Positions 7,155 to 7,426 of a stretch of DNA of 41,340 nucleotides are shown here, in pieces. This stretch comes from a virus (Duplodnaviria; Heunggongvirae; Uroviricota; Caudoviricetes), in the IMG/VR virus record IMGVR_UViG_2778261227_000005, positions 1-41,340 of that record; one strand, given 5' to 3'. The number at the start of each line of letters is the position of its first letter. The first letter of the stretch is position 1. Both the position numbers and the translations under genes were made by a program. Under the pieces are notes generated by a model. The model saw only the letters and a program-made list of their open reading frames with translations. It did not search any database and was not told the origin of the DNA.

Positions 7155-7349
7155 TCATCCAACTAACCGCATTGCCTTTATCCCTCCTTCAATCATACTA
7201 CCGTGATCTGCAGCCATCACAAAATCAGCCCACCACTGCATCATAGGCCGTCGCTGCTCAAGATAATCACTACGGTTATACGCACGACGAACCTCATTCT
7301 TATCCACATGAGCAAGTGCAGCCTCAATAACATCAGGTGGAAATCCCTG
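7155..7349 (-). pseudogene. 3' fragment of a tyrosine integrase gene (C-terminal ~64 codons including the catalytic-Tyr region), truncated at the prophage boundary
   Basis: Minus-strand translation reads ...QGFPPDVIEAALAHVDKNEVRRAYNRSDYLEQRRPMMQWWADFVMAADHGSMIEGGIKAMRLVG*, matching the conserved C-terminal end of P4/CP4-57-type integrases (from memory). The frame has no start and is closed by a stop immediately upstream at 7353-7355. Confidence 0.6.
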
Positions 7350-7426
7350 TGATTAGACTTGAGATAAATGACAGGGAATAAGTGAGATATTTATGGGAAG
7401 AACTGGGTCAAAATGGGAAGAGACCA
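7350..7426. repeat. Putative prophage left end with three direct copies of an ATG(A)(C/G)(A/G)GGAA-like motif; candidate transposase-binding sites
   Basis: Sequence starts TGATTAGACTTGAG; aatgacagggaataag, tttatgggaagaactg and aaaatgggaagagacc recur at roughly 20-bp spacing. Cannot be compared with the right end, which is outside the window. Confidence 0.4.

Follow-up and report, generated by a model that had tools for sequence, protein, structure and literature searches.

Why would a reading frame that resembles a tyrosine integrase lose that resemblance from one nucleotide to the next, at precisely the point where a transposable prophage begins? This is the question raised by the window analysed here, a stretch of 41,340 nucleotides that makes up the whole of a draft short-read contig (NLUL01000039.1 of GCA_002232775.1). 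A first-pass annotation, made from the letters alone, had suggested that a Mu-like phage transposed into the integrase of a pre-existing island. We find it very probable that a phage, albeit a BcepMu-like one, inserted by transposition into the integrase of an island that was already in place at ssrA. The features to which we refer are collected in Table 1.

Table 1. Features of the window, in order of their position.
Feature	Coordinates	Strand	Basis and remarks
IS3-family (IS629-like) element, terminal 77 nt	1..77	-	100% identity to annotated IAI39 element end (L018:41719-41797)
PD-Lambda-4_A, 5' part	78..2802	-	intact homologue L001:1152-5003 (1283 aa), a full-length PADLOC match
1248-aa island gene	3270..7016	+	ORF; identical protein adjoins intact integrase in many genomes
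Integrase 3' remnant	7155..7349	-	identity with WP_000113815.1
Target-site duplication, left copy TCCCTG	7344..7349	.	6-bp rule in 4/4 copies; phage end, TCCCTG and integrase 5' part joined in contig L019
Prophage left terminus, presumed transposase binding site	7350..7372	+	5'-TGATTAGACTTGAGATAAATGAC; imperfect terminal inverted repeat; terminus shared with the independent copies read
BcepMu-like transposable prophage	7350..41340	+	left end to contig end; 95% identical to PhiKM; colinear relatives
Mor-family late transcription activator	7511..7900	-	Pfam PF08765, E=1.3e-43; first gene inside left end
AAA+ ATPase (ExeA/MuB-like transposition helper), 388 aa	11132..12298	-	Pfam AAA_22, E=2.9e-20; L020 gene call
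DDE (rve) transposase, 589 aa	12309..14078	-	Pfam rve, E=9.6e-9; annotated as transposase in PhiKM
CI-type repressor	15607..16038	+	Pfam Phage_CI_repr, E=1.2e-17; at strand switch
Accessory ORF, 297 aa	16161-17054		no Pfam match
Accessory ORF, 153 aa	16990-17451		no Pfam match
D12-class adenine methyltransferase	17504-18271	-	

An integrase remnant at the edge of the ssrA island

The minus-strand frame at 7155-7352 translates to SQGFPPDVIEAALAHVDKNEVRRAYNRSDYLEQRRPMMQWWADFVMAADHGSMIEGGIKAMRLVG* (translation of 7155-7400) and is preceded by a stop at 7353-7355. Window 7155-7349 is the 3' end of the gene for a P4-type tyrosine integrase of 413 aa: it comprises 64 codons, Q350-G413, and the stop codon. 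Between Q (7347-7349) and the stop at 7155-7157, amino acid identity to residues 350-413 of WP_000113815.1 is 100%, so that what had been put at roughly 64 C-terminal residues is exactly 64. The intact homologue carries the Pfam domains Arm-DNA-bind_3, Phage_int_M and Phage_integrase, the last of these spanning residues 214-378, and matches NCBIfam NF007246 over its full length (1-413, 931 bits). Submitted to Pfam on its own, the 65-aa fragment finds no match because it is too short, and DNA identity decided the assignment instead: near-identity of this kind to an intact gene, annotated in 863 genomes, is far beyond chance.

Is the fragment a gene in its own right? The complete catalytic set (R, H-x-x-R, H, Y) does not lie on this polypeptide, which holds only H363 and the catalytic Y373, while R248 and H337-x-x-R340 fall on the far side of the prophage. 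The first in-frame start is a GTG at 7307, which would yield just 50 aa, and the short integrase-like ORF at 7155-7349 is a pseudogene remnant, not a small gene. The GTG-started ORF does have one public 50-aa match, on a single 623-bp metagenome contig (L014; ERZ1755371 NODE_43188). We rejected phage-caused truncation as the origin of that second ORF, as the contig carries an otherwise intact integrase whose codon 349 has gone from GAG to TAG, a nonsense change. Coverage of the contig is low; the TAG gives the same downstream 50-aa ORF as in the window, and the change may stem from an error in sequencing or from a separate pseudogenisation event.

In prophage-less genomes the integrase gene is adjacent to tmRNA at the edge of the island. 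The intact 413-aa form is found beside ssrA/tmRNA in E. coli O104:H4 (locus L001) and many other strains; in O104:H4 it lies about 200 bp from ssrA, bordering an island with giant genes of 1283 and 1248 aa, to which window 78-7349 is 99.96% identical at the DNA level. When window 6800-7900 was compared by megablast with 5426 complete E. coli genomes, 863 genomes matched, and among the matches listed all span only 6800-7355 and are annotated 'hypothetical protein' and 'integrase'. At least 80% of this query is covered in 0 of the 5426 genomes, none of which has the window junction, and a search of public loci encoding the identical 1248-aa protein returned only loci with an intact integrase. 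In about 860 complete genomes that lack the prophage here, the ssrA locus is occupied by this island with its integrase unbroken. This is what one would expect if, as the first-pass annotation held, a pre-existing island with two large genes received the phage.

The island in the window bears a second insertion. The end of an IS, which in reverse complement reads TGAACCGCCCCGGG...ATGACTAAAAATACTCG, forms the contig edge; island homology begins at window 78, and the IS interrupts an island gene at 77/78. That gene is PD-Lambda-4 gene A, which is cut to a 917-aa ORF (49-2802), with gene B off the contig. The intact O104:H4 island matches both PD-lambda-4 PADLOC models (A with 2531 bits, B with 544 bits), and the IS therefore disables an anti-phage defence gene of the very island in which a phage splits the integrase. 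The 1248-aa protein, by comparison with Pfam, NCBIfam and PADLOC, has no match. Its identical sequence occurs in 2284 blocks of a public collection, which makes it a very common giant protein with a defence-island context. Between the convergent 1248-aa gene and integrase lies a perfect hairpin, AAACCCTGCTTAAGAGCAGGGTTT, at 7046-7072; it is conserved with the island and is probably a bidirectional terminator.

Both sides of the probable insertion

In a three-way alignment, host identity stops at 7349 (...GGAAATCCCTG) and phage identity runs from 7350 (TGATTAGACTTGAG...). Megablast had extended host homology to 7355, an extension that we rejected as a gapped chance match past 7349. Phage homology begins at 7350 in PhiKM and in the four complete-genome copies for which left junctions were read; all 40 left-end matches among those listed begin at query position 1, that is, at window 7350, and the left terminus is identical in 19 IMG/VR contigs. 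The prophage had been proposed to start with TG at 7350 and the likeness to integrase to end at 7349, and this boundary proves exact: it can be fixed to the nucleotide. The left junction itself was found neither in GTDB representative genomes nor in IMG/VR.

Of the 5426 complete E. coli genomes, 641 (about 12%) carry the same prophage, and in most of these 641 the first 1.65 kb of the element matches at an identity of at least 95%. Genes interrupted, among the matches listed, are hycH/hyfJ, aceK, prpR, gcd, irp2, paaZ, rlmI, aes, lom and others. Site-specific phage integration was considered and rejected, since copies occur at many different loci.

If the phage moves by transposition, its copies should be flanked by a short duplication of the target. 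We read both junctions in four independent complete-genome copies of this phage group. All four have the same ends, 5'-TGATTAGACTTGAG...GCGCGGCGCATCA-3', and all four are flanked by a 6-bp direct repeat: AACAGA in the RIVM_C036569 copy, which interrupts hyfJ; GCTCGC in the TUM13754 copy, at the 3' end of yhfW and upstream of php; GTCTGC in the E30 copy, which interrupts an EAL-domain gene; and GCACAT in the IAI39 copy, which interrupts lom. Were the duplication really one of 5 bp, chance agreement at the sixth base in all four copies would have a probability of ~0.004. Applied to the window, the 6-bp rule gives TCCCTG, which covers integrase codons Q350-G351. Insertion at many unrelated sites, as among the matches listed from the 641 genomes, goes together with a short duplication, of 6 bp in 4/4 copies and in the pair formed by the window and the contig described below; the five known duplications have no obvious shared consensus.

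Because the window is a whole contig, the right junction must be on another one. We therefore took the intact integrase and the right end of the phage and derived the junction, with the protein it would encode, for a duplication of 4, 5, 6 or 7 bp. Under the 6-bp model, the integrase frame proceeds through ...ALNEQG and then meets TGA, the complement of the terminal TCA of the phage, giving a 351-aa product. By exact look-up among ~15 billion proteins, this product (P0001) is present (NCBI and Logan, 5 contigs), and the products predicted for duplications of 4, 5 and 7 bp are absent. A product that ends at G351 implies insertion at that exact point, because TTT (F352) cannot be turned into a stop by one substitution. 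The first-pass annotation had favoured a 5-bp duplication, CCCTG (7345-7349); we rejected this candidate in view of the 6-bp repeats in all four copies and the absence of the product predicted for 5 bp.

The right junction was then sought as DNA. An IMG/VR scan for CGCGGCGCATCA-TCCCTG-CTCATTAAGGGC returned one contig, IMGVR_UViG_2778261227_000012 (L019, 8736 bp), which has the terminal base of the phage at 6775 and TCCCTG at 6769-6774. Its ORF at 5722-6777 is exactly P0001, integrase residues 1-351 followed by TGA, and the contig retains ssrA-proximal homology as far as L001:10835. The 5' part of the integrase and the duplication, which the annotation had expected beyond the right end of the phage, are thus present, in a different assembly from the window's. 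The phage part of L019 (1.95 kb) encodes a Gin-type invertase and a tail-collar protein, and this right-end module is the module of the window's closest relatives, for example M-17, M114 and A31. Searches elsewhere were negative: the right junction was found neither in GTDB representative genomes nor in the metagenome scan, neither junction was found in complete RefSeq E. coli genomes, and among the IMG/VR contigs from L019's IMG genome none has the left junction or the left end of the phage.

L019 and the window are almost certainly the two sides of one insertion event, because a phage that uses many sites is very unlikely to have struck the same nucleotide twice, independently. We accordingly infer that the right junction is present in the window's own genome.

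A second element, in tandem at ssrA, occupies L019:1-5483, upstream of the truncated integrase; it encodes a tyrosine recombinase of 309 aa, an AAA_15/AAA_21 ATPase of 594 aa and a D12-class methyltransferase. This contig remains homologous to the plain ssrA locus until some 30 nt into the 3' end of ssrA.

Other routes to the same junction, and what the insertion would have done

Although the two contigs fit together well, a junction of this kind may in principle be real and still owe its existence to a rearrangement. Imagine that a deletion or inversion had accompanied Mu-type replicative transposition, or that copies of the prophage had recombined with one another; the right end of the phage would then not be beside the integrase. 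The right junction does lie outside the window, and hence outside this contig, and recombination between copies is possible in principle given that some complete genomes have up to three phage-end matches. However, the matching right junction with its 6-bp duplication is public, and the 351-aa product that goes with it is found on 5 contigs. For a rearrangement to account for the window all the same, a phage with many sites would have had to hit the same nucleotide independently, and we consider this explanation very unlikely.

A second scenario accepts such coincidences and makes them the rule: the integrase position might be a preferred target, or might have been struck repeatedly, in different lineages. 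A 351-aa protein from Shigella flexneri (P0010; ENX6535721.1, EOK4691647.1, HCS2664591.1), which differs from P0001 by 6 amino acids, also ends at G351. Suppose that the position after codon 351 were indeed a recurrent target of BcepMu-like phages, with two alleles (P0001 and P0010) cut at G351, a proposition to which we attach very little credence. The phage would then favour, guided by sequence or structure, an island integrase beside an anti-phage defence locus, and the knock-out of that defence locus by an IS would hint at selection for disabling or immobilising the defence island. Several observations argue against repeated insertion. The junction is present in 0 of 5426 complete E. coli genomes, and if there were a preferred target we might have expected the five known duplications to resemble one another, which they do not in any obvious way. 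Some of the protein records for P0010, moreover, are named 'partial', and a single insertion would lead to the same result if the 5' part of the gene had recombined afterwards. Shared ancestry with recombination, recurrent insertion and a contig-edge artefact are all possible reasons why P0010 ends at G351; as an account of the junction in the window, a preferred or repeatedly hit target strikes us as extremely improbable.

It is scarcely credible, finally, that faulty assembly of a chimeric contig created the 7349/7350 junction: this is a draft short-read contig, and its edges, with exactly 77 nt of an IS on the left and a last 80 nt that are repeated in a related prophage, are typical of de Bruijn graph assemblies (presumably with k=77), but the break coincides with a conserved phage terminus in every copy or phage record whose left junction was read, the reciprocal junction with the 6-bp duplication occurs in an independent contig, and a second contig bears the same 917-aa truncated product along with its surroundings.

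We therefore return to insertion by transposition. In outline, a phage of ~37.6 kb equipped with an rve-type DDE transposase and an AAA+ helper would have transposed into the integrase of the ssrA island. The transposase would have joined the TG...CA ends to a target cut with a 6-bp stagger, and repair would have duplicated TCCCTG. On the left, this would leave the island, the 3' remnant of the integrase (350-413), the duplication and the phage left end at 7350; on the right, and on another contig, the phage end ...GCGCATCA would be followed by the duplication, by integrase codons 351 down to 1 and by the ssrA side. The integrase is split after G351, between H337-x-x-R340 and H363/Y373. Its N-terminal product, 1-351, would keep the arm-binding and core-binding domains together with R248 and H337-x-x-R340, and would stop on the TCA of the phage, read as TGA.

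Given the reaction that tyrosine recombinases carry out, neither piece of the integrase can complete catalysis alone. With the catalytic residues divided over two pieces, excision and integration of the island by its own integrase would be lost. Judging from a gene that is split off from its catalytic tyrosine, the loss of self-excision is very probable, and the ssrA island is probably fixed in place in this strain. A related integrase might supply the activity in trans, as the tandem element on L019 has a second tyrosine recombinase. Disruption of genes by transposable phages is textbook behaviour, and the disruption of the integrase is a tidy but ordinary example of an already-known kind of event. 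Its main value is to clarify annotation, without opening a new biological question; the empirical rule that prophages of this group are flanked by a 6-bp and not a 5-bp duplication helps the automatic definition of prophage boundaries.

The prophage and its relation to known systems

Over window 7350-15240 the prophage shares 95% identity with Escherichia phage PhiKM, a Bcepmuvirus according to GenBank. Gene calls on the window's source contig (L020) add GemA and Phage_Mu_Gam to the genes of Table 1, and the relatives annotate the AAA+ ATPase as an ExeA family protein. The transposase shows weak similarity to IS481/IS21 transposases, its Pfam match being limited to the rve core. The repressor separates the bottom-strand early cluster from top-strand lysis, head and tail genes. 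The prophage is colinear with those of RIVM_C036569, TUM13754 and IAI39 except for an accessory region and parts of the tape-measure gene. The accessory region, at ~15568-19527, differs from all three relatives compared (L003, L015, L018), and a 38-mer specific to the window's version of it matched only one IMG/VR contig, an unrelated metagenome one.

With M-17 as scaffold, the part of the right end that lies beyond the window is estimated at about 3.6 kb and the whole element at ~37.6 kb; the M-17 prophage is among the closest relatives (99.3%) of the last 5.3 kb of the window. The right edge of the window falls within a tail-fibre gene, and its last 80 nt (41261-41340) occur three times in the invertible multi-cassette tail-fibre region of M-17 (L041:1494-4512). 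A shufflon-like invertible region of this kind explains why the assembly breaks at the end of the window, with a tail-fibre gap of ~1.7 kb. The tail-fibre pieces of L019 (6787-8736) match the M-17 region in inverted orientation, and a Gin-type serine invertase is encoded at the phage right end.

How does the locus compare with what is known? On the host side, the relevant group are the P4-type tyrosine integrases of tRNA and tmRNA islands (NF007246/PRK09692, for example the CP4-57 IntA class at ssrA), and the window fragment is the exact C-terminus of one of them. Compared with a functional P4-type integrase, the gene is split, and only residues 350-413 are left at the window junction.

On the phage side, Tn552-type transposases make duplications of 6-7 bp, and a duplication of this length would fit the reported Tn552/IS1604-like kinship of the BcepMu transposase. 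That transposase is described as unrelated to MuA, and the termini of BcepMu as CA (PMC2771037); in the literature searched we found no stated value for the length of the BcepMu duplication. BcepMu carries its regulators and transposase on the bottom strand beside one end, followed by lysogeny control and then by top-strand lysis, head and P2-like tail genes, and its virion DNA is reported to have random host DNA at both ends, a mark of replicative transposition and headful packaging (PMC2771037). The window prophage shares this layout of early cluster, repressor and late genes with the BcepMu-like viruses (Bcepmuvirus: BcepMu and phiE255 of Burkholderia, and PhiKM). As in BcepMu, its early cluster near the left end comprises, on the bottom strand, Mor, GemA, Gam, an AAA+ ATPase, an rve-type transposase and small regulators. 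BcepMu-like termini read 5'-TG...CA-3' and form imperfect terminal repeats of ~23 bp (PMC2628397, PMC2920897). The phage group of the window shares both properties: its left end is TGATTAG... at 7350, its right end is ...GCGCATCA (read in L019 and four relatives), and 14-15 of 23 positions agree between the two. BcepMu is described as having no tail-fibre inversion system (PMC2771037), whereas the right end of the E. coli prophages bears an invertible tail-fibre region of several cassettes along with a Gin-type serine invertase.

With regard to Mu itself, the first-pass annotation was right to invoke a transposable phage that inserted into the integrase, but the phage is BcepMu-like and not Mu proper. 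Mu (Muvirus) is a transposable temperate myovirus with TG...CA ends that inactivates genes at insertion, hence a 'mutator', and its target duplication is 5 bp. The window prophage shares with Mu the TG...CA ends, homologues of Mor, GemA and Gam, and the capacity to transpose and to disrupt genes. Unlike Mu, its group duplicates 6 bp (4/4 copies) and its transposase is not MuA-like. The early operon is also inverted relative to the near end: where Mu has its repressor at the left end, with ner, A and B reading away from it, the window cluster reads toward the end, with Mor proximal to it and the repressor 8 kb inside. On its genes and ends, then, the prophage appears to work like Mu, but it belongs to a BcepMu-like group that is common in E. 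coli, and not to Muvirus.
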